Assembly (NCBI GenBank): GCA_052327205.1
Contig: CM126228.1
Coordinates: 30,318,001-30,382,000, forward strand
Source: Somniosus microcephalus
Taxonomy: Eukaryota
Length of the DNA: 64,000 bases
Direction: 5' to 3'
A model generated the notes under the pieces. That model did no database searches. It saw only the letters and a program-made list of their open reading frames with translations, and had not been told where the DNA came from. Below, in pieces: positions 11,028 through 64,000 of this stretch (position 1 is its first letter; every line of letters starts with the position of its first letter). A program made the translations under genes and the position numbers.

Positions 11028-12814
11028 ATGGAGAAGGCCAGGGAGAGAGCGCAGCGCTTCAGCGACGGTGACCTGAGGCTGCTGGTTGGCGGAGTGGAGC
11101 GCAGGCGCCATGTTCTGTTCCCAGAAGGTGGCAAGAGGCCGCTGCCCAGCACCTACCGGAAAGCCTGAAGGGAGGTCTCCAACAGGGTGTCTTCCAACAG
11201 CGTGGTTGCCAGGACTCCTGTGCAATGCCGGAAGAAGTTCAACGACCTCACTCGGGTTGTCAGGGTGAGTACCCTTTCCAGTGTCCTCCTCATCCTTGCA
11301 TGTGCACCTCACTTTATGGGCAAAGGGACCTGAAAGCCCTAATGGCCAGCCCTCATCCAGCAGCTATGGGACTGGCATGAAAATCACTTGCACATTCAGC
11401 ACTTTACACACTGTACAAGCTCTTCGACCATGGGAGGCATTGTAGACAAGATCAGGGCTACACACTGTACAAGCTATTCGACCATGGGAGGCAGTGCAGA
11501 CAAGATCAGGGCTTCACACTGTACTTAGAGGCCGTCCTTTCTCTTGCAGGCCAAGGTGGCGCACAACCGGCGCAACCGAACTGAGACCGGGGGAGGCTGT
11601 CCTGACCTCAAAGAGCTCTCCGACCTCGACCAGCGTGTGGAGCGCATTATGGCAGGCCGCTGATTGGCCCCGTCGCCAGTGGAGATGCCGACCCTGTTCT
11701 GGGCACCAATGGTAAGGGCATCACCTTTTGGACCTCTCTCGTTCCACTTGCGCATGAGATCAGCATCCTTTGCCACTGTCCGACCAATGCGGTGAATGGC
11801 AGCACTCATGCCTCCCTCGCTGCCGCCCTGTCCTCACTCTAAAGCTACTCTTGTGCCTTCCTGCTTTCAGATGGTGAATCGCCAGGTGAGGAGGCGGGCC
11901 CTCAAGCTGCCACTGTCAGCGCTTCGGAATACGAGGAGGAGGAAGAGGAAGCCGGTCCATCAGTGCCACCCTCAGCCGCGCCAGCCCATGGCGATGTAGG
12001 GGACACGTCTTCCCTGGAGGGGAGCCGGGGGGAAGGGTCGGAGGAGAGTGAAGCTCCGGGGCCCAGCGGCCTGCAGCAACGCGGGAGGGGTGGGGAAGCT
12101 CGGCGGACTTCTCCCCAGAGGGTGAGTGCGGCCTCCAGTCCTGCGACGGTGAGCGCAGAGGAGGTGCGCCTCCTAGAGGAAATGGCCGTCCAGGCTGAGC
12201 GCAGGCACACTGAGCTCATGGCTGCAGTGGCAAGGATGCCTGACTCCATAGAGTCTCTGTCAAGGAGTGTGCAGCAATTCGGAGCAGCACAGGCCAGGAG
12301 TCTGCAACAATTCAGTGCAGCACAGGCCAGGAGTCTGGAACAATTCAGTGCAGCACAGGCCAGGAGTCTGCAGGACTTCGCGGCAGCACAATCGGCTTCT
12401 AGCCAAGTGCTCAGTCGTGCCGTCCATTCACTGGCTGGTGTCATGCGGACACAGACCAGGGCCACACGGGCACTAACTGCTGCCACCCTCACTGGATCAG
12501 CCAGGCATCGCCAGGGCACTCGCCGCGCAGCAGCAGCCCAGCAGTCTGTTCTTCAGCTGTTTGCTGCGCATGCTGCAGTGCTGGCCCGTGCGAGTGCCAA
12601 TGTCTCAGGCGACCAGCGAGCACCTGCGATCTGCCAGGTTGCCACCATTCCTGCAGCCGACACTGCCACTCCGCCATTACAGCTGCCACGAGCCGCTGGA
12701 CAGACTGCTGCCGCCCAGCCAGAGTTGGAGCAGTCAGCAGCCGGCCACTCCAAGGCCAGAGCTGGTGCTGGCCGACCCCCAAGGGCATCTGCCGTCTCGC
12801 CATCTGCCCCTTAG
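11028..12814 (+). pseudogene. Harbinger Myb/SANT-like DNA-binding protein, 3 exons (11028-11264, 11550-11711, 11871-12814), disrupted
   Basis: GT-AG junctions match element 2; TGA at 11166 replaces the conserved Trp; exon 2 is 162 nt versus 163 nt (frameshift). Confidence 0.88.
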
Positions 12815-13236: not shown

Positions 13237-14361
13237 CTAGAACTGACGTTCAATAAGCCGGCGACGGGCGGCCCTTGCACTTTGTGCCTCCCTCCTGTGC
13301 TGGTCCTCCTCCTCCTCCTCCTCCTCCTGAGGTGGTCCTCCAATCTCTGGTGGCAGTGCCTGAGTCCTGCGGATAGCCAGGTTGTGCAGCATGCAGCAAA
13401 CGACCACGAAATGGGAGACTCGCTCTGGCGAATACTGTAGGGCTCCACCGGAACGATCCAGACAGCGGAACCGTTGCTTCAGGACGCCGATTGTTTGTTC
13501 GATGATGTTCCTGGTCGCTTGATGGCTCTCGTTGTATCCCTCTTCAGCAGGGGTGCTGGGCGCACGGAGCGGGGTCATCAGCCAGGTACACAAAGGATAG
13601 CCTTTGTCCCCGATAAGCCATCCTCGTGGGTGAGGCTGTGCCTGGAACATGTCTGCCACAGAAGTCTGTCGCAGGATGAAGGCATCGTGGCTGCTGCCTG
13701 GAAAGCGGGCATTGACAGCTAGGATGAGCTGCCTGTGGTCACACACCAGCTGGACGTTCAGCGAACGGTAGCCCTTCCGGTTGCGGTAATCCTCGGCATT
13801 CTCCAGAGGTGCCCGCAAAGCCACATGCGTGCAGTCAACGGCGCCCTGCACCATGGGGAAGCACGCGAATGCTGCAAAGCCCATTGCACGCTGTTGCTGC
13901 TTGGCAAGGGCCATGGAGAAGGAGATGAACTGACGTCTCCTTTTGAAAAGGGCATTGGTCACCTGGCGGATGCAGCAATGCACGGCGAACTGGGAGATGT
14001 TGGCAATGTCCCCAGTAGCGGATTGGAAGGAGCCGGTGGCATAGAAGTTGAGAGCCACCGTCACCTTCACTTCCACTGACAGAGACGTCCTGCTCCTCAG
14101 CTGTGGCTGCAGATCACCGCCAAGCAGGTGGCAGATCTCTGTGACCATGTCCCTTCTGAATCGCAGCCTCCGAACACACTGCTCGTCAGACATGTTGAGA
14201 TAGGAGAACTGCTGGCGGTATACCCTGGGTGGGTAAGGCCTCCTTTCCCGACGCCTGTTGCCCCCTCTCCGTCTAGCCAGGGCTGCCACTCTCTCACGGC
14301 GTCTGTGAGCCCTTTGGATGTAATTGAGAAAGCCAGCGTTGACACCCATTGCAGCCCCCAT
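13237..14361 (-). CDS. Harbinger DDE transposase (HARBI1-like), 374 aa
   Basis: GAVDCTH, GSSHD, IGDKGYP, RNIIEQTIGVLKQRFRCL motifs; uninterrupted ORF. Confidence 0.95.
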   Translation of the reverse strand: MGAAMGVNAGFLNYIQRAHRRRERVAALARRRGGNRRRERRPYPPRVYRQQFSYLNMSDEQCVRRLRFRRDMVTEICHLLGGDLQPQLRSRTSLSVEVKVTVALNFYATGSFQSATGDIANISQFAVHCCIRQVTNALFKRRRQFISFSMALAKQQQRAMGFAAFACFPMVQGAVDCTHVALRAPLENAEDYRNRKGYRSLNVQLVCDHRQLILAVNARFPGSSHDAFILRQTSVADMFQAQPHPRGWLIGDKGYPLCTWLMTPLRAPSTPAEEGYNESHQATRNIIEQTIGVLKQRFRCLDRSGGALQYSPERVSHFVVVCCMLHNLAIRRTQALPPEIGGPPQEEEEEEEDQHRREAQSARAARRRLIERQF

Positions 14362-17296
14362 AATATGCTGGCAAACAATGAGATGTCAATGAAGGCAAAG
14401 ACTAGTGGAAAGCTGTGGCCTGAAGCCAGAAGTATCTGTCCGAGTGTTGGGCCAAAGCAGAAAGCTATCTACCTTGGTCTCTCTCCAAAGATCCGTTTCT
14501 CAAGAAGGAGTGCTGCGAAATGGCAGCCTTTTATAGTGCAGGAGGAGTGCCCTTTAATTTGCGCCCCCCGCGCCCCGCATCGGCTGAGCACCGTTCCACT
14601 CTAACAGTCGCTAGGGGCGCCAGGCACACAATGGGGCGTCGCCACTGAAGTTCCGGTTGGGGGCGTACAATGGGCGTTGCACGAGGAAATGACGTCATGA
14701 TCTGCGCGCGCAGCTGAGCACGCGCAAAGACTTTGCGCCGCCGCTAAATCTCTAATGAAGTTGGGGCGAGGCGCAGATCGTGCTGCGCCCGGGCGCTAGC
14801 CGCCTAGCGCCCGACATCTACTCCTCCTAAGGCGCTAATGGCTGGCGCAACCAACTGAATTTCTAGGCCAATCTGTTTCAGTGATGTCAGTTGAGGGGTA
14901 AATATAGGCCAGGACACCGGGGAGAAATCCACGGCTCGTCTTCGAAATAGCCCTACATTACAACAGTGACTACACTTCAAAAAAATACTTCATTGGCTGT
15001 AAAGCGCTTTGGGACATCAGGTGGTCATGAAAGGTGCTACAGAAATGCAAGTCGTTCTTTTTTTTCTTTATTGTGCCATGGGATCATTTATGTCCATCTT
15101 GGGTAGACGGGGCCTTGGTTTAAAATTTCACCTGAAAGACGGCACCTCTGACATTGCAGCATTCCCTCAGCGCTGCACTGGAGTGTCAGCCTAGATTTTG
15201 TTCTCAAGTCTCTGGAGTGGGACTTGAACCCACAACCTGCTGACTTAGAGGCGAGTGTGCTACCCACTGTGCCATGCCTGCTACCTGCAGGTGTTGTAAC
15301 ATGTGGGTTACATGTTCTTCAGGTGATTAACTAAAAAGACACTGCGGTTTTTATCTTTTATCATACTCACAGCTGAATAAAGTACACCAGACTTCTTATT
15401 GCTGAGTTTTATGTGCCAATAAAGCTTGGTAAATACATGGTTAAATAGCTCACTATGTGTTACCTTTGCCATTGATCTCATAAACAAGACTAGACTTTAC
15501 AATATTAGTTGCAGTTCAGAGTATGTTAACTTTTGAGTGCATGTCAGTGGAATGGCTTTGATCTCATGCACTTTACAATACATTTCAGAAGTGGTGCTCC
15601 CATACTATAGAAAAAAAATCAGTCTGTAGTTTTATAAGGATTTGAAGTATCGAATGGTTTCAAGTCTGGAAAACAGATTTGCGCCAGTTTGCTTTTAAGT
15701 AGCAAAAAATAAAGAAATAGCATTGCACCTAATGTGTTAAAGGGACACTTTCAACAATGATTTCAGGCTATGGCTGGGAAATTACATTGCATGGTCAGGA
15801 CTAGTTTGGTAGCCCAGCATTGCTGCTAAGTTGTCGAACACCTCACAGAGTAACCTCTTTACATTGTCAACTGGACCGTCAGTTCATGCTAATCCACCTT
15901 ATTAGTGTAACACAAACTCTGACTTCACTGTTCTCGATTGTGATAAAGTAACCTCAACTCAGGTGGATTTTACATCAGGATCATTTCGAAGACAGTACAA
16001 CATAAACTGTCAGTAGATTGCAATCCCATTCTGTATCCCAGCAGCCTCTCCCCTTTACATTCGTTCTGTAGGAATATACTGATGTAGTCAGCATCTGTGC
16101 ATGGGCTCGGGTCACGGAGGGCATGTGTTTGTGAAGGATGCATGGAGCCCAGCAGTGGAGGATCCCACTGAGAGCCTATCAATCTAAATGGAACCAGCTC
16201 TACTGACACTGCATTCAGGAATGTGTTTTTGACACCAGACTGGGAATTAGGGCTTGGTGCTTTGTACACGATTTCAGACCAAAACAGTGCAGACTGAATT
16301 CTATTCCATTTACATTGCCATTAAATAGAAATGGTTCAGCTGTGTGAGTCACATTTGAGACATGCATGTTTTGCTGTTTTGTTTTGGGTGCATTGTGTTG
16401 GTACACATGCGACCGTCAACTGGGTAGGACGTGTAAATGGAGCACACATGAGATTGCAATGTATGCCAGTAACATATGTAATACAATAATGGGGTGAAGC
16501 CTGCTATGCGAGCTCTGAACCACAGCACGATGTCACTGGTAATGCTAATGGCAGGAGAAGGAGTATTGCCTCCTTTAATGATTGCAATTTATTTTTATAT
16601 TATAAATGCAAGACAAAGTTGTTGTTGTCGTTGTTGCCATCATCAACCACTGGTCACCTCTTCTGTAAACATACCATTGATTGAATCTAGAGTTCTCAAG
16701 ATTAAATTATGTCGATGTGGCTAGGGAGTCTGGCATTCCATATTCCTGACGCTAGGTACTATTTGTCTACCACCTGCCATGCATACTCTCAGCAATTGTG
16801 TTGAGATCTGCAGGAGAATTTGAGCACCCCAGACGCAATTGGAAAGAAACAAGGGCAAAGGATGCCTTTTTTTGTTGTTGATGCTGTATGAATGTTCGAA
16901 GCTTCTCTGGTGAAGCATTCGTAAGAACAAAGCAAGGTGGCTTGAGGAATAACAATAGACATTGCTGACCTGTGCCCACAGTTGTTCCAATGGGAATCTG
17001 CAAAATGCCTGTCAACTAGAAGTTAATTTATCATCTATTTACTTATTGCATCTAAACTTCCTGAAACCATCACAACACCTACCCATCCCTCCTTTCCACA
17101 ACATGCCCATACTGGCACCATTGCTACCCATTACATTTTGTAAAATCAGTGACATGAACGACCAATGGCAGCTATTTATACACTGCACCATTATTCAAGC
17201 TGCTTCAGAATATTAACATTTTAAGCCATGTTTATTCCAAATGCAGAATAGTATTTTCGATTGCCATGTGGCAAAGTGATTTCTTTACAGGTTTAG

Positions 17297-25231: not shown

Positions 25232-25548
25232 ACTGTGTGGGACTGATGGGCACCCCAACCTCCCAGAAACAGCGAGTGTAGCAGGCATGGGAGGAAGTGG
25301 CAAAAGAATGAAAGTAGTGTCCAGAACCTGCAGGAGTTGGCAAGGCATCAGAGAAGTCAGCCAAACAGGCTCCACAGACAGTATTCAAGGAGGAGGTTGG
25401 TGATCAGCTGGTTGGTTGGTTTTCTTCCTTCTCTTCTCTTTCATACCTTTAAGTTGGTAAGTCCTATTGAATAGTGGTGTGATATTATCATATATATCCG
25501 GGCAGGGTCTTCATAACTAATAATAAGAAATTTAATTAATTATATAGA

Positions 25549-26502
25549 ATGGAGCAGGTGATGTGTTACTGTTGCGAGATGTGGGAGCCAGTGAACCCCA
25601 TTGAGGCTAACGGTGATTACATCTGCGACAAGTGTTTGCTGCTAGAGGAACTCAAGTTCCATGTTATGGAGCTTGAGACCGAGCTTCGGACACTGCGACA
25701 CATCAGGGAGGGGGAGAAGTTCCTGGACTCTATGTTTCAGGAGATGGTCACACCTATGAAGTTAATTACTGCAGATGTAGTCCGTGGTCAGGGACAGGAC
25801 GGTGTGACTACGAGTGAGGAAGGTACAGGGATCCAGGATGTAGTGTTGAAGGAGACGCAGCCCTTGCTCTTGTCCAGCAGGATCGAGGTTCTTACTCCCT
25901 GTGAGGGCGGGAGCGGGGACTGCAGGGAGGATGAGCAACCTGGCCACAGCACCGTGGTACAGGGGGCCATTCAAGTGGAGGGAGTAAAAAGAAATGTTGT
26001 AGTGGTAGGGGATAGTATCATTAGGGGGATAGATAGGGTTCTCTGCAGTCAAGAGCGGGAGTCCCGAAGGCTGTGTTGCCTGCCTGGTGCCAGGGTTAAG
26101 GACATCTCTTCTGGGCTGGAAAGAAACTTGCAGTGGGAGGGGGAGGATCCAGTTGTCGTGGTCCATGTTGGTACAAACGACGTAGATAGGACAAGGAAGA
26201 CGGTTCTGTTAAAGGAGTATGAGCAGCTAGGGGTCAAATTAAAAAACAGAACCTCAAGGGTAATAATCTCTGGGTTATTACCTGAGCCACGAGCGAATTT
26301 GGCTAGGATAAATAAAATTAAAGAGTTAAATGCGTGGCTCAAAGACTGGTGTGGGAGAAATGGGTTTTGCTTCTTGGGACACTGGCACCAGTACTGGGAC
26401 AGGAGGGAGCTGTTCTGTTGGGATGGACTCCACTTGGCCAGTGCTGGGACTAGAGTCCTGGCGAATCATATAACTAGGGCTGTAGAGAGGGCTTTAAACT
26501 AA
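25549..26502 (+). CDS. CR1 ORF1p: Zn-finger/leucine zipper plus SGNH esterase
   Basis: CxxC..CxxC, heptad LEELKFHVMELETEL, VGDSIIR / HVGTND / DGLH blocks. Confidence 0.93.
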   Translation: MEQVMCYCCEMWEPVNPIEANGDYICDKCLLLEELKFHVMELETELRTLRHIREGEKFLDSMFQEMVTPMKLITADVVRGQGQDGVTTSEEGTGIQDVVLKETQPLLLSSRIEVLTPCEGGSGDCREDEQPGHSTVVQGAIQVEGVKRNVVVVGDSIIRGIDRVLCSQERESRRLCCLPGARVKDISSGLERNLQWEGEDPVVVVHVGTNDVDRTRKTVLLKEYEQLGVKLKNRTSRVIISGLLPEPRANLARINKIKELNAWLKDWCGRNGFCFLGHWHQYWDRRELFCWDGLHLASAGTRVLANHITRAVERALN

Positions 26503-26540
26503 TTAGTGGGGGGGAGGTTTCTAGAGAGCAAATCATAGAA

Positions 26541-29492
26541 ATGACAACAGAGAAGGTCATAGACTTAGGTAGCAGTGGGGGAATTAAAAAACAGAATGTG
26601 TCAGGAAGGGACAGAAGGTATGGAGTAAAAAGTAAAGTACTAAAAAGGGAAAAAACAGGAACTAAGTGTTACAAAACATATTTGAAAGTTCTTTATCTGA
26701 ATGCACGTAGCATTCGTAACAAAATGAATGAGTTAACGGCACAAATAATGACATATGGGTATGATCTTGTGGCCATTACAGAAACATGGCTGCAGGGTGA
26801 CCATGACTGGGAATTAAACATACCAGGTTATTTAACAATCAGGAAGGACAGGCAGGAAGGGAGAGGAGGTGGGGTGGCTATGTTAATAAAGGAAGGAATC
26901 ACTATAATACAGAGAAATGATATTGGGTCAAAGGAGCACGATAGTGAAACAGTTTGGGTGGAGGTAAGGAATAATAAGGGGAAAAAAACACTAGTGGGTG
27001 TAGTCTATAGGCCTCCGAACAGTTGCAACTCTGTTGGACGGAGTATTAATCAGGAAATAGTTGAGGCTTGTAATAAGGGAACAGCTATAATTATGGGGGA
27101 TTTTAATTATCATATTAACTGGACAAATCAAATTGGGCAGAGCAGCCTTGAGGAAGAGTTCATTGAGTGTATTAGGGATGGGTTTCTTGAGCAGTATGTA
27201 ACTGAACCGACCAGGGGGCAAGCAACCTTAGATTTGGTCCTGTGTAATGAGACAGGATTAATTAAAAATGTCCTAGTAAAGGATCCCCTTGGAATGAGTG
27301 ACCATAACATGGTTGAGTTCCATATTCAATTAGAGGGTGAGAAGGTTGGATCTCAAACAAGCGTGCTGAGCTTGAATAAAGGAGACTATGAAGGTATGAG
27401 AGCGGGATTAATGAGAGTGGACTGGGAAAATAGATTAAAGGGTAAGACGGTACATGACCAGTGGTGTACATTTAAGGAGTTATTTTACAACTTCCAAAAA
27501 AAATATATTCCACTGAGGAAAAAAGGGTGTAAAAGAAAAGATAGCCATCCGTGGCTAAGTAAAGTAATTAAGGATAGTATCCGACTAAAAACAAGGGCAT
27601 ATAAGGTAGCCAAATCTAGTGGGAGGATGGAAGATTGGGAAGTCTTTAAAAGACAGCAAAAAATAACAAAAAGATTGATTAAGAAAGGGAAGATAGATTA
27701 TGAAAGTAAATTAGCAAAAAATATAAAAACAGACAGTAAAAGTTTCTATAGTTATATAAAAAGAAAAAGGGTGGCTAAAGTAAATGTTGGTCCCTTAGAG
27801 GATGAGACCGGGAAATTAATGGTGGGAAACATGGAGATGGCAAAAACACTGAACAATTATTTTGTATCAGTCTTTACAGTAGAGGACACTAAGAATATCC
27901 CAACACTGGACAAACAGGGGGCTCTAGGGGGGGAGGAACTAAATACAATTAAAATCACTAAGGAAGTGGTACTTGGTAAAATAATGGGACTCAAGGCGGA
28001 TAAATCCCCTGGACCTGATGGCTTGCATCCCAGGGTCTTGAGGGAAGTAGCGGTAGGGATTGTGGATGCATTGGTAATAATTTTCCAAAACTCACTGGAC
28101 TCAGCAAAGGTCCCGGCAGATTGGAAAACTGCTAATGTAACACCATTATTTAAAAAGGGTAGTAGGCAGAAGGCTGGAAACTATAGACCTGTTAGCCTAA
28201 CATCTGTGGTTGGTAAAATGTTAGAGTCCATTATTAAGGAGACAGTAACGGGACATTTGGATAAACACAATTTAATAGGGCAAACTCAGCATGGTTTCAT
28301 GAAGGGGAAGTCATGTTTAACAAATTTGCTTGAGTTTTTTGAGGAAGTAACATACAGGGTGGATAAAGGGGAACCAGTGGACGTAGTGTATTTAGACTTC
28401 CAAAAGGCATTTGACAAGGTGCCACACAAAAGATTATTGCTCAAGATAAAAAATCACGGGATTGGGGGTAATATTCTGGCATGGGTGGAGGATTGGCTCT
28501 CTAACAGAAAGCAGAGAGTTGGGATAAATGGTTCGTTCTCAGATTGGCAACCAGTAACTAGTGGTGTTCCGCAGGGGTCAGTGCTGGGTCCCCAACTCTT
28601 TACAATCTATATTAACGATTTGGAGGAGGGGACCGAGTGTAACATATCAAAGTTTGCAGATGATACAAAGATGGGACGGAAAGTAGTGAGTGAGGAGGAC
28701 ATAAAAAACCTGCAAAGGGACATAGACAGGCTAAGTAAGTGGGCAAAGATTTGGCAGATGGAATACAATACTGGAAAGTGTGAAGTTATGCACTTTGGCA
28801 GGAAAAATCATAGAGCAAGTTATTATCTTAATGGCAAGAAACTGGAAAGTACTGTAGTACAAAGGGATCTGGGGGTCCTGGTGCACGAAACTCAAAAAGT
28901 TAGTATGCAGGTGCAGCAAGTGATCAAGAAGGCCAATGGAATGTTGGCTTTTATTGCTAGGGGGTTGGAATATAAAAACAGGGAGGTATTGCTGCAGTTG
29001 TACAAGGTATTGGTGAGGCCGCACCTGGAATACTGCATACAGTTTTGGTGTCCATACTTAAGAAAAGACATACTTGCTCTCGAGTCAGTACAAAGAAGGT
29101 TCACTCGGTTAATCCCGGGGATGAGGGGGTGGTCATATGAGGAGAGGTTGAGTAGATTGGGACTCTACTCATTGGAGTTCAGAAGAATGAGAGGCGATCT
29201 TATTGAAACATATAAGATTGTGAAGGGGCTTGATCGGGTGGATGCGGTGAGGATGTTCCCAATGATGGGTGAAACTAGAACTAGTGGGCATAACCTTAAA
29301 ATAAGGGGCTGCTCATTCAAAACTGAGATGAGGAGAAACTTCTTCACTCAGAGGGTGGTAGGTTTGTGGAATTTGCTGCCCCAGAAAGCTGTGGAAGCTA
29401 CATCATTAAATAAATTTAAAACAGAAATAGATAGTTTCCTAGAAGTAAAGGGAATAAAGGGTTACGGGGAGCGGGCAGGAAATTGGACATGA
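26541..29492 (+). CDS. CR1 ORF2p: APE endonuclease plus reverse transcriptase (frame open from 26478)
   Basis: NARS, ITETW, GDFN, SDH endonuclease motifs; QHGF, DFQKAFDKV, GVPQGSVLGP, FADD RT motifs. Confidence 0.97.
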   Translation: MTTEKVIDLGSSGGIKKQNVSGRDRRYGVKSKVLKREKTGTKCYKTYLKVLYLNARSIRNKMNELTAQIMTYGYDLVAITETWLQGDHDWELNIPGYLTIRKDRQEGRGGGVAMLIKEGITIIQRNDIGSKEHDSETVWVEVRNNKGKKTLVGVVYRPPNSCNSVGRSINQEIVEACNKGTAIIMGDFNYHINWTNQIGQSSLEEEFIECIRDGFLEQYVTEPTRGQATLDLVLCNETGLIKNVLVKDPLGMSDHNMVEFHIQLEGEKVGSQTSVLSLNKGDYEGMRAGLMRVDWENRLKGKTVHDQWCTFKELFYNFQKKYIPLRKKGCKRKDSHPWLSKVIKDSIRLKTRAYKVAKSSGRMEDWEVFKRQQKITKRLIKKGKIDYESKLAKNIKTDSKSFYSYIKRKRVAKVNVGPLEDETGKLMVGNMEMAKTLNNYFVSVFTVEDTKNIPTLDKQGALGGEELNTIKITKEVVLGKIMGLKADKSPGPDGLHPRVLREVAVGIVDALVIIFQNSLDSAKVPADWKTANVTPLFKKGSRQKAGNYRPVSLTSVVGKMLESIIKETVTGHLDKHNLIGQTQHGFMKGKSCLTNLLEFFEEVTYRVDKGEPVDVVYLDFQKAFDKVPHKRLLLKIKNHGIGGNILAWVEDWLSNRKQRVGINGSFSDWQPVTSGVPQGSVLGPQLFTIYINDLEEGTECNISKFADDTKMGRKVVSEEDIKNLQRDIDRLSKWAKIWQMEYNTGKCEVMHFGRKNHRASYYLNGKKLESTVVQRDLGVLVHETQKVSMQVQQVIKKANGMLAFIARGLEYKNREVLLQLYKVLVRPHLEYCIQFWCPYLRKDILALESVQRRFTRLIPGMRGWSYEERLSRLGLYSLEFRRMRGDLIETYKIVKGLDRVDAVRMFPMMGETRTSGHNLKIRGCSFKTEMRRNFFTQRVVGLWNLLPQKAVEATSLNKFKTEIDSFLEVKGIKGYGERAGNWT

Positions 29493-33894: not shown

Positions 33895-34005
33895 ATTGAA
33901 AGAGATTAAGAGGAAAAATCTGAAGTGAAATCAGCTCTCCACATATTAGCAAGCCAAAAGAGAACACCGTTACTTACCTTTGGAGAATAGCTAACGAAGT
34001 AAAAA

Positions 34006-35277
34006 ATGGAAGGTTTACACCCACCGGCGAAGCTTCAGTTGACATGTAATGTGGCTGAAAATTGGAGGAGGTTCAAACAACGTTTGGAGTTGTATATAGC
34101 GGCAATCGGAGCTGACGAGAAAAGTGATAAAATGAAAGCGTCAGTGTTCTTACATGTTGTGGGTGATGAAGCGCTGGAGGTATACAATAACTTCACATTC
34201 GCTGCTGATGGAGACAAAATGAAGCTGGATAAAATAATGGAACAGTTTGAGGCCTACTGCATACCTAAACGTAATGTGACGTTTGAGAGGCACAGATTTT
34301 TCACATGTGTACAGAAAACGGGAGAGACTATTGATCAGTATGTGACTGAACTGAGAAACAGAAGCAAAACGTGTGAATTTGGGGGACTTACAGACTCGCT
34401 GATAAAAGACAGACTGGTGTGTGGTATTCCAGATAATGGTCTAAGGGAAAGACTGCTAAGAGAGCAAAATCTAGACCTGGGAAAAGCCATAGCACTGTGT
34501 AGGGCTACAGAGACTGTGAAGTCGCAGGCAAAGGAGCTGTTCAGTGACAGTAGCTGCAACGTGGATGCAGTGAGAAAGAACGGGCACAAACCGTTTAACA
34601 AAAAGAGCGCCAATGTGAAAAAAGAGGCGTGGCCAGCGAACAAAAATGAAAGGGGCAATCGAAAGTCATGTAGTCGATGCGGTACACAGCATCCACCAAA
34701 AAAGTGTCCAGCATATGGTAAAACATGCAATAGTTGCAACAAAAACAACCATTATGCCCGTTGCTGTAAGAACCAAGCGCAACAAAGCAAGGTCCATGCA
34801 GTAGATGAAAGCGAGAAAGAGGAGTTCAATGTGGATGTTGTGTCTGAAAACAAAAAACAAAAAAGAGACTGGATGTTGACACTAAAAGTGAATGACATAC
34901 ACATTCCATTTAAATTGGACACTGGAGCACAAGTTAATGTGATATCAGAGACTGATTTTAAGAAAATTAGACCCAGACCAAAGATACATGGAGCAAAAGT
35001 GAAAGTGACAGGATACTCAGGTACTGATATACCAGTGAAAGGAAGATGCATTGTCAAAGTGACACACAAGGACAGAGAGCACACGCTAGCATTAATCGTG
35101 GTGCCAAAGGATGTGCAGGCCATACTAGGTTTAAAAGCCTGTGAGAGACTGAACCTGGTAAAGAGAGTCCTCGTTGTGGAAAGCGAAGGAGAGACAGTCT
35201 ATGATGAACTCATGAAAGAGTACAATAACCTATTTCAGGGTCTAGGCTGCCTTCAGGAGAACACACGATCAGAGTAG
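34006..35277 (+). pseudogene. Gypsy Gag plus protease (originally one ORF with pol; 1-bp deletion near 35253)
   Basis: Two Cys/His knuckles, FKLDTGA protease site; adding one base restores GLGCLPGEHTIRVDKSMPT into the 35286 frame. Confidence 0.9.
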
Positions 35278-35285
35278 ATAAAAGT

Positions 35286-37636
35286 ATGCCAACGGTCCTA
35301 CATCCATGCAGAAAAGTTCCATTTGCTCTTCAAAAGCAACTGAAGGCAGAGTTGGACAGGATGGAAAGCCTGAACGTGATTCAGAAGATAGATGAGCCAA
35401 CTGAGTGGGTGAGTTCCCTCGTCGTTGTGGACAAAAAGAATGGAAAGCTCAGAATTTGCCTGGATCCAAGAGATCTAAACAGAGCAATAAAGAGAGAGCA
35501 CTTCAAGCTTCCTACACGTGAGGAAATCATGTCACAGTTTGCAAATGCAAAGTATTTCAGCAAGTTAGATGCATCATCAGGATTTTGGCAGATGAAACTG
35601 GACGAAGCAAGTTCAAGACTGTGCACGTTCAACAGTCCATTTGGCAGATACAGATTCCTAAGGTTACCATTTGGCATTGCCTCAGCTCCTGAAGTGTATC
35701 ACAAAACTATCCATATGATCTATGAGCACCTGGAGGGAGTTGATACCTCAATGGATGACATCATAGTATGGGGAACCACGAGAACTGAGCATGACGAGAG
35801 ACTGAAAAAAGTGCTGGAAGCAACAAGGAAAACAAACCTGAAGCTGAATAGAGAGAAATGCCAGCTCGGGGTGACAGAACTGACATTCGTGGGAGATATC
35901 CTTAGCAGTGAGGGCATCAGACCAGATCCCAGAAAGGTGTCCGCCATTGAGAATATGCCAAAGCCACAATGCAAAAAGGACGTGCAGAGGTTTAATGGAA
36001 TGATCAATTACATGGGTAAATTCATATCCAACCTCTCAGAAAAGATGGCGCCACTGAGACGACTAACTGAAAAGAACATAGAATGGGAATGGAATCATGA
36101 GCATGAGAAGTCATGGAGCGATCTAAAGAAACTGCTCACAGAGGAACCAGTTCTGAGGTTTTATGACCCAGCGAGACCCATCAAGATATCATCAGATGCA
36201 TCACAGAGTGGGCTCGGTGCCGTTCTTCTGCAAAAATATGACTACTGGCAACCTATTGCATATGCATCGCACTCAATGACAGACGCGGAGACGCGATATG
36301 CTCAAATAGAAAAGGATCTGCTCAGCATCACATACGCCTGTGAAAGATTTCACCAGTTTGTGTCAGGACAAGCAATCAGTGTAGAGACTGACCATAAGCC
36401 CTTGATTGCATTGTTCCAAAAGCCGCTAAATGGGTGTCCGCTTAGAATACAAAGAATGATGATCAGGCTGCAACGCTATACACTGAATGTTGCGTACACA
36501 CCGGGTAAGCTGATGTATACAGCAGACACGTTGTCCAGAGCTGTTGACCCAAGTGAGCCCGCAAACACCAAAATGGATGAAAAAGTGAACGCCTACGTGG
36601 ACATGATCACAAGTGCACTGCCCATAGCAGATGCAAAAATGGAGCTCATAAAGATGGAGACAAACAAAGATGAAACAATGAGACGACTGAGGAAAAGCAT
36701 CTTGGATGGATGGCCCAACATGAAGCAAGACTGCTCACCTGACATGGCAGAGTACTGGAACTGCAGGGCGGAACTACCAGTGGTCGAAGACATCATCTAC
36801 AAAGGAAGTAAAATAGTTATCCCAAAGAGTCTGAGAAAAGAGATGCTAAAAAGGATCCATGGAGAACATCTGGGAATCGAAAAGTGTAAGAAAAGAGCAC
36901 GAGAGGTGATGTACTGGCCACAAATCAACCAAGATGTGACAAATGAGGTGTCAAACTGCACAATATGCCTGAAATATCGAGCAAGCAATCCGGTAGAACC
37001 ACTAAAGCCACACCCAGCGCCAGACAGACCTTACCAGAAGGTAGGCGCTGACCTATTCGTATGTCAAGGGAAGGACTATCTTGTAGTCACAGACTATTAC
37101 TCCCTGTATCCAGAGGTTTGTAGACTGTACACAACCACTGCAGATGCTGTGATAACATGTATGAAAGCCATATTCTCCAGACATGGCGTGGCAAGCGAGG
37201 TCTTCACAGACAACGGACCCCAGTTTTACAATGCAAGTTTCCGACACTTTGCCAAAGAGTGGGACTTTGTCCACACAACGTCAAGTCCTCACTTTCCACA
37301 GTCCAATGGACTAGTGGAAAAATCGGTCCAGACAGTGAAAAGACTGATGTACAAGGCAAAAGACAGTGGAACTGACTTCTACCAGAGCATGCTTGTATAC
37401 TGCACAACGCCGCTCGAGTGTGGTATGTCACCAGCCCAACTCCTTATGGGACGTCTGCTAAGGTCAAACCTACCCATCCCGGAGAACCTCCTGAAAACAA
37501 AAGAGGGGGAGAAAGTGAGGAAGTTCAAAGAACAACAGAAAGAAAAGCAAAAGTACTACTATGACAGAGGAACACAAAACCTATCTGAACTCCACACTGG
37601 TGACCAAGTAATGTTCAAAGACAAAACAAACATATG
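35286..37636 (+). pseudogene. Gypsy Pol (RT, RNase H, integrase), cut by the Harbinger insertion
   Basis: LDPRDLN, LDASSGFWQ, LPFG, SMDD, DAS, TDHKPL, HHCC, TDNGPQF, SNGLVE motifs. Confidence 0.93.
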
Positions 37637-37808
37637 GGCCTAGAAATTCAGTTGTGCGCGCCAGCCGTTAGCGCCATAGGGGGAGTAGATCTCGAGCGCT
37701 AGGCGCTTATCGCACGGGCGCAGCGCGATCTGCGCCTCTCCCCAACTTCAGGACACATTTAGCGCCGGCGCAAAGTCTTAGCGCGCGCCCTGCTGCGCGC
37801 GCAGATCA

Positions 37809-37988
37809 TGACGTCATTTAATAGCGCAACGCCCTTTGTGCGCCCCAAACCGGAACTTCACTCGCGCCGGCCCATTGTGCGCCGGGCGTCCCGAGCGACT
37901 GTGAAGTGGAACGGTACACAGGCCATCCGGGCCGGGGGGAGCGCAAATTAAAGGGCACTTACCCAGCAGTATAAAGGCCAGCCATTTT
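37809..37988 (+). promoter_or_regulatory. Putative transposase promoter
   Basis: TGACGTCA 37809, CCGGAA about 37850, TATAAA 37970, GCCATTTT 37981; equivalents at matching positions in elements 1 and 7246. Confidence 0.5.
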
Positions 37989-38142
37989 GCAGCATTCACT
38001 CTTGTGCAACGGTTTTTTGGACAGAGACCAAGGAGGAGAGTTTACTGGTTTGGACCAACACTTGGACAGGTATTTTTGGCTCAGGTCAGAGCTTACCAAT
38101 TATCTTAGCCTTCACTCAGAGCTCAGTGTTTGCCAGCATATA

Positions 38143-39288
38143 ATGGGGGCTGCATTGGGTGGCAACGCTGAATTTCAGCCTTATGCCAGAAGGGCTTACA
38201 GACGCCGTGAGAGAGTGGCAGCCCTGGCTAGACGCAGAGGGAGCAACAGGCGTCGCCAACTGAGGCCTTACCCACGCAGGGTATACCGCCAGCAGACCTC
38301 CTATCTGACCATGTCTGCCGCGACGTGTGTTAGGAGGCTGCGATTCCGAAGGGAGGTGGTTGCAGACATCTGCCGGCTGCTTCAGAGAGATCTGCAGCCA
38401 CAGCTGATGCGCAGGACGTCTCTGTCGGTGGCAGTGAAGGTGACGGTGGCTCTCAACTTCTATGCCTCCGGCTCCTTCCAATCCGCTACTGGGGACATCG
38501 CTAACATCTCCCAGTTCGCCGTGCATTGCTGCATCCGCCAGGTGACCGAAGCCCTTTTCAGAAGGAGACATCAATTCATCTCCTTCCCCGTGACCCTGGA
38601 CAAGCAGCAGCAGCGTGCAGTGGGGTTTGCAAGAATAGCGGGCTTCCCCATGGTGCAGGGTGCCATTGACTGCACGCATGTGGCTTTGCAGGCACCTCTT
38701 GAGCATGCCGAGGATTACCGCAACCGGAAGGGCTACCATTCCCTCAATGTACAGCTGGTGTGTGACCACAGGCAGCGCATCCTAGCTGTCAATGCCCGCT
38801 TTCCAGGCAGCAGCCATGATGCCTTTATCCTGCGACAGACAACTGTGGCTGACATGTTCCAGGCACAGCCTCCCCCAAGAGGATGGCTTATCGGGGACAA
38901 AGGCTATCCTTTGTGTACCTGGCTCATGACCCCGCTCCGCGCGCCCACGACCCCTGCTGAAGAGGCATACAACGAGAGCCATCAAGCGATGAGGAACCTG
39001 ATAGAACAAACAATCGGCGTGCTCAAGCAATGGTTCCGCTGTCTCGATCGCTCCGGGGGAGCCCTCCAGTATTCGCAGGATCGAGTCTCCCAATTCGTCG
39101 TCGTTTGCTGCATGCTGCACAACCTGGCTATCCGCAGGACTCAGGCACTGCCACCTCACGTTGGACTACCACCTCAGGAGGAGGAGCAGGAGGAGCATGA
39201 GAACGACGAGGACGAGGAGTACCAGCCCAGGAGGGACGCACAAGGTCCAAGGGCCGCCCGTCGTCGGCTTATTGAACGTCACTTCTAG
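38143..39288 (+). CDS. Harbinger DDE transposase, 381 aa
   Basis: GAIDCTH, IGDKGYP, RNLIEQTIGVLK; ATG chosen by homology to element 1. Confidence 0.95.
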   Translation: MGAALGGNAEFQPYARRAYRRRERVAALARRRGSNRRRQLRPYPRRVYRQQTSYLTMSAATCVRRLRFRREVVADICRLLQRDLQPQLMRRTSLSVAVKVTVALNFYASGSFQSATGDIANISQFAVHCCIRQVTEALFRRRHQFISFPVTLDKQQQRAVGFARIAGFPMVQGAIDCTHVALQAPLEHAEDYRNRKGYHSLNVQLVCDHRQRILAVNARFPGSSHDAFILRQTTVADMFQAQPPPRGWLIGDKGYPLCTWLMTPLRAPTTPAEEAYNESHQAMRNLIEQTIGVLKQWFRCLDRSGGALQYSQDRVSQFVVVCCMLHNLAIRRTQALPPHVGLPPQEEEQEEHENDEDEEYQPRRDAQGPRAARRRLIERHF

Positions 39289-39664: not shown

Positions 39665-41626
39665 CTAGGGCGATGCCTTGGCCATCTTTGGGTGGCCCCT
39701 GCCCGCCCTGCTGCTCCACCTCAAAGTAAGGCCATTGGCTGCTGCAAGGCTGGGGGCAGGCTCCTGAGGGGCACATGTCGTGACGGCAGATGCCCTTGGG
39801 GGTCGGCCTAGTCGAGATCTGGTCGTCGAGCGGCCGGCTGTTGATTGCTGCAGCTGTGGCTGGCCAGCATCAGTCGCTGCAGCAGCTCCTGGCAGCTCCA
39901 CTGGGGGAGTGGCAGTGGCTGCTGGAGGAATGGCGGCAAGCTGGCGGATGGCAGGCGCTCGCTGGTTGCCTGAGACACTGGCACTCGCCCGGGCCAGCAC
40001 TGCAGCATGCGCACCAATCTGCCGAGGGACAGACCGATGTGCTGCTGCAGCGCGCCGTGTGCCCTGGCGATGCCTGGCTGACACAGCGAGTGTGGCAGCA
40101 GTGAGTGCCCGTGTTGACCTGTTCACTGCCCGCAGCAGAGCAGCCAGTGACTGGACGGCACCACTAATCACCTGGCCAGTCGCTGCAAGATCTGCCCGGT
40201 ATTCCGCCCGACTGGTGGCCTCTAAGGGCCCGAACTCGGCCACACTCCGAGAGAGGGAATCGATGGACTCAGGCAACCGTGACACTGCCGCCATGAGCTC
40301 CGTGTGCCGGCGCTCCGAGTCCACGGACAAGTCTTCGAGGCCTTCCATCTCCTCGGCGAACAGCATCTCCTGACTGGAGGCCGGACTCTCCCTCTGGGGA
40401 GAAGGCCGCCGAGCTGGCCGACCCTTCCTGCGTTGCTGGAGGCCGCTGGGCCCAGCAATTGGACTCCCCTCCGATGCACCCCCGCTCTGTGGAGAAGGCC
40501 GCCGAGCTTCCACCCCTCTCCCGCCTTTCTGCAGCACACAGGTCCCAGGAGCTCCCCTCCCCTTCGACACTTCCGCCACGCTGCCCTCCAGGGAAGACGT
40601 GTCCCCTACATTGGCCTGGGTGGCCGTGGCTGAGGGTTCCCCTGATGGGCCGCCTTCCTCTTGCTCCTCCTCCTGCTCCTCCTCGGAGGGTCTGTCACTA
40701 GCAAGTTGAGGGACCTCCTCTTGACCATCTGAAAGCAGGAAGGCACAAGAGTAGCTTTAGAGTGAGGAGAGGGCGTCAGTGCGGGATGCATGAGTGGTGG
40801 CATTCAGCGCATTGGTCGGACAGTGGCAAGGGATGTAGATCTGATGCGCAAGTGGGACGAGAGAGGTGCAAAAGGTGATGTCCTTACCATTGCTTCCCAG
40901 AACAGGGTTGGCATCTCCACATGCCACGGGCCCAATCACCCGGCGACCCGTGAGGCGCTCCACGCGATGTTGCAGGTTGGTGAGTGGCTGGATATGGGGT
41001 CGTCCTCCCCCGGTCGCAGTCCGGCTCCTGCAATTATTCGCCAGCTTGGCCTGCAAGAGAAAGGACGGCCTCTAAGTACAGTGTGTCGCCGTGATCTTGT
41101 GTGCACTGCCTCCCATGGTGGAATAGCCTGGCCAGTGTGTCGCCATGATCTGGTGTGCACTGCCTCCCATGGTGGAATAGCCTGGCCAGTGTGTCGCCAT
41201 GATCTGGTGTGCACTGCCTCCCATGGTGGAATAGCTTGGCCAGTGTGTTCAGTGCAGAATGTGCAATTGATGCTCATGCCTGTGCCATAGCTGCTGGATG
41301 AAGGCTGGCCATTAGAGCTTTCAGGTCCCTTTGCCCATAATGTGAGGTGCACATGCAAGGATGAGGAGGTCATTGGAAAGGGTACTCACCCTGACAATGC
41401 GTGTGAGGTCATTTATCTTTTTGCGGCATTGGGCACCGGTCCTGGGGACGTCGCTGTTGGCTGACAGCTTGCTGGCGACATGCCTCCAGGCTCTCCTGTA
41501 GACGCGGACCGTCGCCTTCTTGCCATTGTCCGGGTACAAAACATGGCGCCTCTTCTCCACAGCAGCAAGCAGCACACTCAGATCACGCTCTGAGAAGCGC
41601 TGCGCACGTTCACGGGCCTTCTCCAT
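39665..41626 (-). CDS. Harbinger Myb/SANT-like protein, 3 exons (41626-41390, 41050-40888, 40728-39665), 487 aa
   Basis: GT-AG introns, 237+163+1064=1464 nt in frame; RFS..L....VE.RR..L / AW..VA / RT..QCRKK.NDL / TGGG motifs. Confidence 0.88.
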
Positions 41627-62490: not shown

Positions 62491-63044
62491 ATAAATACAG
62501 AATTGGTGAGTCGCTTGCCCACCTGAGAAACATTTTTTCAAGTAGATGAGGAATGGGCAGAATGACTGCCTAGTTACTGCCGCAACAAGCAACTCCCCGC
62601 AAAGGATACCCATAAGCCTGTGATTTTCTATGAATGCCCCCAAGCGGGAGCTAGTAAAAGGTGGGAGTTCCCAGTGGCTGCCCAATTTTCTGCTGTCATT
62701 ACCAGCGTATTTAAATGAGGTGGTAGTGGTGCGCTGCTGTCATGTGTTTCATTTTCTATCATCGCCGCTTTGCTTACACCCAACACCTATCACGTCCTCA
62801 CTCTCCGTCTTCCTCCTGAGCTCCTTTGGCCAACCTGTGCACTAGTCACCCTGTGCACTCCCCTCTGGCTCATTATCAAATACCCGACAGGTGGATGCTT
62901 CTTAGCTGGTGCTTGGGAGGGAAGGAGTGGTTTCCAGGGCACGTGATTAAGAAGCAGAGGAAATGATTCCCCGATGCCTACGGGTGTGTACGCGCTGTGT
63001 ACATCGGAAATGCCGGTTTCAGGCATGCAAAGTGCACTTGGGGG

Positions 63045-64000
63045 AGTGTTTGCTAGTGCTGTGGGGGAGGGTTTAAACTAAAATGGCAGGAGGCTGGGAA
63101 CCTGAGCAGGGAGACAAAGGAAAGGGAAACAAGGATAGAAGCAAAAGACAGGAAGGAGAAAAACAAAGGTGGCAATCAGGGAAATCAAGGGTTTAAAACA
63201 AACATGGCCACAGTAAATAATAATTCTAAAAGGTCTAAGAGCGTTAAAAAAACAAGCCTGAAGGCTTTGTGTCTTAATGCAAGGAGCATTCGTAATAAGC
63301 TGGATGAATTTGCAGCACAAATAGAGGTAAATGAATATGATATGATTGGAATAACGGAAACATGGCTCCAGGGGGACCAAGGCTGGGAACTCAACATCCA
63401 GGGGTATTCAATATTCAGGAAAGATAGGCAAAAAGGAAAGGGAGGTGGGGTAGCATTGCTGGTTAAAGAGGGGATTAACACAATTGTAAGGAAAGATATT
63501 GGCTCTGATGATGTGGAATCTGTATGGGTAGAACTAAGAAATACCAAAGGGCAGAAAACATTAATGGGAGTGGTGTATAGACCCCCAAACAGTAATGCAG
63601 AGGTTGGGGATGGCATTAAAAGGGAAATTAGAGAAGCGTGCAATAAGGGCACAGCAGTCATCATGGGTGACTTTAATCTACATATAGATTGAGCTAACCA
63701 AATTAGTAACAATACTGTGGAGGAGGAATTCCTGGAGTGTATACGGGATGGTTTCCTGGACCAATATGTTGAGGAACCAACTAGGGATCAGGCCATCTTA
63801 GACTGGGTATTATGCAATGAGAAAGGATTAATTAGCAATCTTGTTGTGCGAGGCCCCTTGGGTCGGAGCGATCATAATATGATAGAATTCTTCATTGAGA
63901 TGGAGAATGAAGTAGTTGACTCAGAGACTAAGGTCCTAAATTTAAATAAAGGGAACTATGAGGGTATGAGATGCGAGTTGGGTAGGATTGATTGGGGAAT
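63045..64000 (+). mobile_element. CR1 LINE: ORF1 end plus ORF2 endonuclease, runs off the window
   Basis: ...FASAVGEGLN* ends at 63081; ORF2 with NARS/ITETW/GDFN; TGA at 63690 replaces Trp. Confidence 0.92.

Follow-up and report, generated by a model that had tools for sequence, protein, structure and literature searches.

CR1 LINEs with an esterase ORF1 probably produce ORF2p (probability of roughly 0.8) by -1 ribosomal frameshifting, as an ORF1p-ORF2p fusion. The slip of one base back would take place at the ORF1 end, on the heptamer U_UUA_AAC (on A_AAA_AAC in one invertebrate-type lineage), in a minority of ribosomes, which would then translate a stop-free linker, unconstrained in its amino acids, and enter the endonuclease-reverse transcriptase, giving the predicted fusion; most ribosomes would terminate and release ORF1p, and the efficiency of the event is presumably low. 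The junction appears to be a real, ancient and clade-wide feature resembling a viral -1 frameshift site: of the three sequence hallmarks of such sites, the heptamer in register and the open -1 frame were both found, and a downstream RNA structure was not. CR1 is the dominant retrotransposon of most chordates.

Two CR1 copies in the window

The window (the whole stretch of 64,000 nucleotides analyzed, positions 30,318,001 to 30,382,000 of contig CM126228.1 from Somniosus microcephalus) contained two CR1 copies, copy 1 and a copy at 63037-64000 to which an earlier note on this DNA had drawn attention (referred to as the flagged copy), with the following features.

25540..26502, plus strand: copy 1 ORF1, SGNH esterase, C-terminus ...ERALN and stop (PF13472, E 5e-10; PDB 4C1B, E 8e-29)
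26493..26499, plus strand: copy 1 heptamer T_TTA_AAC, present in 30/30 closest copies
26478..29492, plus strand: copy 1 ORF2, endonuclease and reverse transcriptase, -1 frame, 1004 open codons (ORF list, Pfam)
63037..63081, plus strand: 5' truncation and CR1 ORF1 remnant (approximately the last 14 codons, ...FASAVGEGLN, and TAA), by family homology
63072..63078, plus strand: slippery heptamer T_TTA_AAC (X XXY YYZ in the ORF1 frame), from the sequence and family copies
63079..63081, plus strand: ORF1 stop TAA adjoining the heptamer, from the sequence
63083..63196, plus strand: +1-frame ATG in strong context with a 37-codon ORF, from the sequence
63087..63104, plus strand: letters of a cagg/cctg 4-bp hairpin, present, the structure unsupported by folding
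63089..63093, plus strand: conserved G-run site (GGAGG in the flagged copy), candidate stimulator, from the family alignment
63072..63257, plus strand: open -1-frame linker FKLKWQ...KKTS from shift site to endonuclease, frame kept, amino acids unconstrained
63204..63206, plus strand: first in-frame ORF2 ATG, not conserved, judged by the codons of relatives
63258..63692, plus strand: N-terminal part of the ORF2 APE endonuclease (PF03372, E 7e-11), ended by TGA 63690-63692

By its anatomy, an esterase ORF1 followed by an endonuclease-reverse transcriptase ORF2, the element is a CR1 LINE. The SGNH esterase typical of ORF1 in the CR1 clade was recognized in copy 1 by both PF13472 and PDB 4C1B, and the APE endonuclease and reverse transcriptase typical of ORF2 by a Pfam search, in which PF03372 matched both copies and PF00078 matched copy 1. 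ORF1 in the family of the flagged copy ended in DGLHL...LN and stop, the same type as copy 1. The lineages of the two copies were 52% identical at the C-terminus of ORF1 and 67% identical in the endonuclease, and these are divergent lineages that hold the site by common descent rather than by separate origins; the second copy was therefore not the "independent" case for which it had been taken in the earlier note.

Family homology in the flagged copy began only at 63037-63039 in comparison with 29 other family loci, leaving about 14 codons of ORF1, and the 0 frame was set by 29 other family copies, with ORF1 ending in ...GEGLN and stop. GGT TTA AAC TAA was located at 63070-63081, and the -1 frame was stop-free from 63057 to the premature TGA; the heptamer, the -1 frame of ORF2 and the 42 stop-free intervening codons were thus as the earlier note had read them. 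Its further remark that the ATG (63204) lies three times further downstream than in copy 1 also agreed with our count (42 versus 14 codons, with the copy 1 ATG at 26541). This ATG, which the note had called the first, was the first in the ORF2 frame only: an out-of-frame ATG at 63083 (AAAATGG) came earlier, and would pull scanning or reinitiating ribosomes off ORF2. The flagged copy is dead and 5'-truncated, and is unable to frameshift itself because it lacks ORF1 and has a premature stop. It was also weak evidence when taken alone, since its 42-codon stretch contained no stop in 24% of dinucleotide shuffles and since TTTAAAC occurred 27 times in the window (11.3 expected). The informative elements are subfamilies S193 and S167 and the contig L311.

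Elsewhere in the window, two intact ORFs (13237-14385, minus strand; 37975-39288, plus strand), which we take to be Harbinger-type transposase-like, each faced a second long ORF on the opposite strand (11843-12814 and 39665-40756, respectively). An LTR-retrotransposon-like gag-pol was found in two ORFs at 34003-37643 (plus strand), overlapping at 35229-35277.

Conservation of the heptamer within the shark genome

Among the best 30 copies of the flagged copy's family (its own included), which as best matches were biased toward similar ones, the heptamer was present in 29, the -1 frame was open through the position of 63204 in 28, and an ATG stood at this position in 27. In the subfamily of copy 1, the heptamer and open frame were both found in 30/30 of the best copies. 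An unselected sample was taken as 140 stretches of 10 kb at round coordinates (1.4 Mb in all), using ORF1 queries without the last 6 residues and after removal of one duplicate row. T_TTA_AAC stood where ORF1 ends in 16 of the 19 distinct junctions, and the remaining three were off by one letter. Of the 18 with an endonuclease match, mostly old copies, only 10 still had the endonuclease in the -1 frame, and 6 had it in +1 and 2 in 0; several copies of the latter two classes read a homologous FKL.. peptide in -1, and then contained a copy-specific indel.

As in programmed -1 frameshifting (PRF), the X XXY YYZ heptamer was in the 0-frame register in both of its forms, T_TTA_AAC and A_AAA_AAC. 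Among the representatives, the codon before the Leu varied (Ala, Gly, His, and Tyr), yet ended in T every time. The Leu itself was TTA in 11/11 shark-genome representatives, and a single codon was used in none of the seven other invariant Leu columns. On the other hand, one-codon use was found in 17 of the 55 invariant ORF1 columns, indicating that synonymous sites among the lineages were not saturated, and the invariance of the heptamer within the genome was modest evidence for this reason.

The linker between the shift site and endonuclease

Selection on the linker was analyzed in four subfamily groups (40, 19, 72, and 14 distinct copies). The column-majority codons contained no stop in the -1 frame in any of the four groups, and 1-8 stops in each other frame; no stop variant common to at least three copies fell in -1, and 7 fell in the other frames. 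The sole shared indel was 15 nt, and the length was a multiple of 3 in one of ten singleton indels. Neither a stop nor a frame break, which the earlier note had named as contrary evidence, was found in any group. The probability of a stop-free linker by shuffling was 0.31 for S1, 0.24 for S2, 0.065 for S167, and 0.012 for S193. Leaving subfamily S182 aside, the -1 frame ran without a stop past the shift site and on into the protein that follows, as in PRF.

The same note had predicted a dN/dS of less than 1 in the linker, and this was not borne out: the ratio of nonsynonymous to synonymous variants was 37:8 for shared and 78:22 for singleton variants (ratio of 1.3, p=0.66), and no amino-acid selection was found by this comparison in the four groups. 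The corresponding values for the endonuclease were 35:72 and 306:127 (ratio of 0.2, p=9e-13). The linker appears to behave as a spacer that is obliged to stay open. An open linker alone would not tell frameshifting apart from reinitiation close to the stop, which predicts it too and needs no frameshift-type 3' structure; the heptamer does appear to tell them apart.

Start codons of ORF2 and termination-reinitiation

In termination-reinitiation of the L1/SART1 type, ribosomes would restart near the ORF1 stop in the -1 frame, at AUG or any other codon, and ORF2p would be a separate protein; we regard this as unlikely for CR1. The mechanism is established for SART1 and L1 according to the accessible text of PMC2881922, PMC3708506, and PMC1965478.

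No in-frame ATG was conserved. The pattern matched 14,430 times, and in the first 100 matches listed the codon at 63204 was ATG in 53, GTG in 33, AGG in 12, and another in 2, i.e., a non-ATG codon in 47 (hand count). S193 gave 1,588 exact pattern matches, and of the 30 copies listed, TTTAAAC TAG was found in 29, and the first in-frame Met was residue 256 in 26. This Met came after NARS, TETW, YRP, GDFN, and SDH, which we take to be endonuclease motifs; a PDB search with the N-terminus of S193 ORF2 gave 0 matches, and the endonuclease residues were therefore placed by these motifs and Pfam only. For S167, a DNA search with L167 had given nothing, and a pattern search gave 2,523 matches; among the 30 copies listed, the exact heptamer was present in 25 (two are truncated), no Met stood ahead of the endonuclease start in 27, and the first Met was residue 178-179, adjoining GDFN, in 21. 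Since S193 and S167 spread without an early start codon, ORF2 cannot need AUG. Against reinitiation, the nearest AUG after the ORF1 stop was out of frame in S2 and S193, and UAAUG was absent in the flagged copy and in 9/10 representatives of the T_TTA_AAC lineages. Missing ATGs alone do not exclude it, because the AUG of L1 ORF2 is dispensable and non-AUG codons are tolerated, as described in the accessible part of PMC1965478. An ATG at the same offset as 63083, two bases past the ORF1 stop, recurred in S193 (+1 frame) and S108.

The exception was S182, in which TAATG was directly 3' of the heptamer in 14/20 copies with the ATG in the -1 frame, and this fits reinitiation. The -1 spacing was found in only 6/17 copies of S182, still the modal class, because the length of the G-run varies; in S097, it was kept in 13/15 heptamer-bearing copies. 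S182 may use both frameshifting and reinitiation. The argument of the earlier note, that conservation of the heptamer and frame but not of the ATG favors frameshifting over AUG reinitiation, appears to be supported, and far more strongly by the family as a whole than by the two copies.

Distant elements and ORF1 protein ends

In the distant element L313, the junction was TAT TTA AAC TAG, and the -1 frame (FKLVGQGG) contained 510 open codons with the first Met after NARS. It was about 30% identical in ORF1 and 35-39% identical in the endonuclease; the endonuclease tree, which covers our own rows only and in which three of six inner branches were open and the invertebrate branches long, was used for identities. 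The sister element L312 had a 1-nt frame break. Although the contigs of L312 and L313 are labelled as bacterial MAGs, they carry animal-type CR1, and are likely contamination by host DNA.

In L311, with a Lys-Asn-type ORF1, the heptamer was replaced: CCA AAA AAC gave A_AAA_AAC, ORF2 was again in -1, the first Met was residue 240, and the ORF1 stop was located 10 codons beyond the heptamer. This form had been predicted from Lys-Asn protein ends before the DNA of L311 was seen, and L311 is the one contig in which it was found. Reinitiation leaves unexplained both this swap, with the stop 10 codons on, and the retention of the heptamer and the invariant T before the Leu at approximately 30% identity.

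Of 159 homologous proteins, 130 had a DGLHL-like motif, and these esterase ORF1 proteins ended exactly in LN (99), in LN followed by a run-on (4), in KN (7; six true cases and a chimeric model), or otherwise (20). The names of the LN-ending entries covered shark, ray, coelacanth, teleost, frog, turtle, and lizard, at the protein level only. In the tortoise gene model P0134, esterase, FKL, linker, and endonuclease were joined in one frame, which is consistent with the same junction DNA. P0151 and P0153, also esterase ORF1 proteins, ended in Gln-Gly-Asn at the LN position, and these ends could correspond to a third heptamer type, G_GGA_AAC. The plant-named protein P0097 shared 71% identity with the ORF1 of a turtle CR1 across the match, and is likely contamination. 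No relative was found in viral contigs.

Search for a downstream stimulator

The stem-loop or pseudoknot that PRF sites contain 5-9 nt downstream was not found in folds computed without explicit pseudoknots: 13 folds after the heptamer were no better than shuffles (z of -1.22 to +0.76). The hairpin pointed out in the earlier note exists as letters, with cagg (63087-63090) and cctg (63101-63104) starting 8 nt after the heptamer, but a role as a stimulator was rejected; it was not the minimum-energy fold (z of +0.76 for 27 nt and +0.43 for 80 nt), and was absent from the other lineages. No long-range pairing partner stood out clearly from the shuffled controls, and only 4/8 were predicted to form a G-quadruplex.

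A run of at least 5 G within +9..+16 was found in 10/10 representatives of the T_TTA_AAC lineages, and the corresponding region of L311 was C-rich. At the site of 63089-63093, 24 of the 30 best family copies had GGGGG. As the stimulator, one may speculatively propose either this G-run, which lies approximately 10 nt past the heptamer, or the stop codon next to the heptamer. The missing RNA structure is the main gap in the frameshifting model, and suggests an event of low efficiency or one stimulated by a protein.

A broader model may be drawn for the whole esterase-ORF1 CR1 clade, to which we give slightly better than even odds: a retrovirus-style esterase-endonuclease-reverse transcriptase fusion from a site pre-dating the vertebrate-invertebrate split, with heptamers that can replace one another (U_UUA_AAC, A_AAA_AAC, and perhaps G_GGA_AAC) and with non-canonical stimulation, in which a protein-bound G-run or the stop codon next to the heptamer takes the place of an RNA structure.

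Other explanations of the junction

It is quite improbable that Leu-Asn is kept for the function of the ORF1 protein with the heptamer as a by-product, and that ORF2 is translated from a near-cognate CTG or TTG at the start of the endonuclease, or else from an mRNA that is spliced or has a separate start. The LN end of 99/130 ORF1 proteins agrees with this explanation, as do the CTG or TTG Leu 4 codons before xNARS in all 9 shark-genome representatives examined and the CAG/G dinucleotide context after the stop in several lineages. A near-cognate start needs no open upstream -1 codons, yet 23-64 of these remain open, and the need for an open linker argues against an ORF2 start at the endonuclease; furthermore, LN was replaced by KN together with a different heptamer, and there was no pyrimidine tract ahead of the CAG. 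Four putative-RNA contig runs from other organisms spanned the junction, and among the variants listed contained neither a heptamer variant nor a joint ending at CAG, which was too weak in either direction.

Polymerase slippage, by which an extra G in the run before the heptamer would fuse the ORF1 and ORF2 frames in some transcripts, is scarcely credible. Of 12 long-frame copies, 11 were in-frame ORF1-ORF2 fusions, nearly all by an extra G, which agrees with this explanation. These fusions were nevertheless scattered over several sub-lineages and resemble mutations of single copies or homopolymer errors of the assembly, and S1, S193, S182, and both invertebrate-type elements have no long upstream G-run.

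A Pfam search revealed CR1 copies with open frames of up to 1,436 codons. A naturally fused ORF1-ORF2 subfamily was considered and rejected, because the long frames were copy-level changes of the G-run and one (L235) was a chimera. In L231-L234 and L236-L242, an extra G upstream of the heptamer gave in-frame fusions with frames of up to approximately 1,290 codons. The frame of L235 (683+ codons) joined an LTR-retrotransposon-like stretch, presumably RNase H/integrase from its motifs, to a CR1 esterase domain.

Comparison with known systems

U_UUA_AAC is the heptamer of coronavirus 1a/1b and A_AAA_AAC that of MMTV and astrovirus, and retroviral gag-pol is also expressed by -1 PRF. The CR1 junction shares with these viral systems the X XXY YYZ heptamers and their register, and the position, where an abundant structural ORF ends and the polymerase ORF is entered. 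It differs in that a purine-rich linker and G-run were found in place of a pseudoknot or stem-loop 5-9 nt downstream, and in that the CR1 element has no protease to cut the fusion. Frameshifting in arterivirus nsp2TF and cardiovirus is stimulated by a protein, with a short unstructured motif approximately 10-11 nt past the slippery site. The position of this motif, in place of a pseudoknot, resembles that of the CR1 G-run, whereas the CR1 motif is G-rich (C-rich in L311) and a trans-acting protein is only hypothetical.

The inter-ORF spacer of L1 contains stops, whereas in CR1 the two reading frames overlap at a slippery heptamer and their offset is fixed at -1. SART1 needs UAAUG, which was present in 1/10 CR1 lineages. 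SART1 and mammalian L1 are similar to CR1 as LINEs with a bicistronic mRNA, in which ORF2 is dependent on the translation of ORF1 (accessible text of PMC2881922 and PMC3708506). Among non-LTR elements of the L1 clade, Dictyostelium TRE5-A and TRE3-A are described in a review legend as requiring a -1 frameshift for ORF2 (PMC5911963, in part). These are also two-ORF APE-type LINEs, but belong to another clade and host and have a non-esterase ORF1; conservation of the CR1 site extends from jawed vertebrates to invertebrate-type CR1.

A literature search gave no report of CR1 frameshifting; the founding CR1 papers (Kapitonov and Jurka 2003, Haas 1997, and Kajikawa 1997), Repbase, and supplements were outside its scope, and could mention an overlap or frameshift. 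In their accessible parts, a frameshifting review treats HeT-A, TART, and L1 with no CR1 found (PMC5009743), +1 frameshifting or reinitiation is suggested for Paramecium LINEs (PMC5405496), and a 2026 CR1 survey (10.64898/2026.01.13.699120) nowhere uses frameshift, overlap, or translat-. A ribosome-profiling study of chicken testis (PMC5383398) describes polysome-associated RNA of CR1-B and CR1-F. Nothing on frameshifting of CR1 ORF2 was found in the accessible text of PMC2734521, PMC4120745, PMC9004415, and PMC4255032. For ORF2 translation in two-ORF LINEs, the portions available of PMC2881922 and PMC3708506 call the mechanism unclear or name reinitiation.

Implications for CR1 biology

If -1 frameshifting operates at this junction, the most widespread LINE clade of vertebrates would rely on it rather than on reinitiation. 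The N-terminal part of ORF2p would be ORF1p, the membrane-binding esterase, and slippage would fix the ratio of ORF1p to ORF2p. Annotations of ORF2 based on ATG, as well as engineered CR1 constructs, would then begin at the wrong place, and the junction would represent a -1 signal without an RNA structure that works in vertebrate cells.
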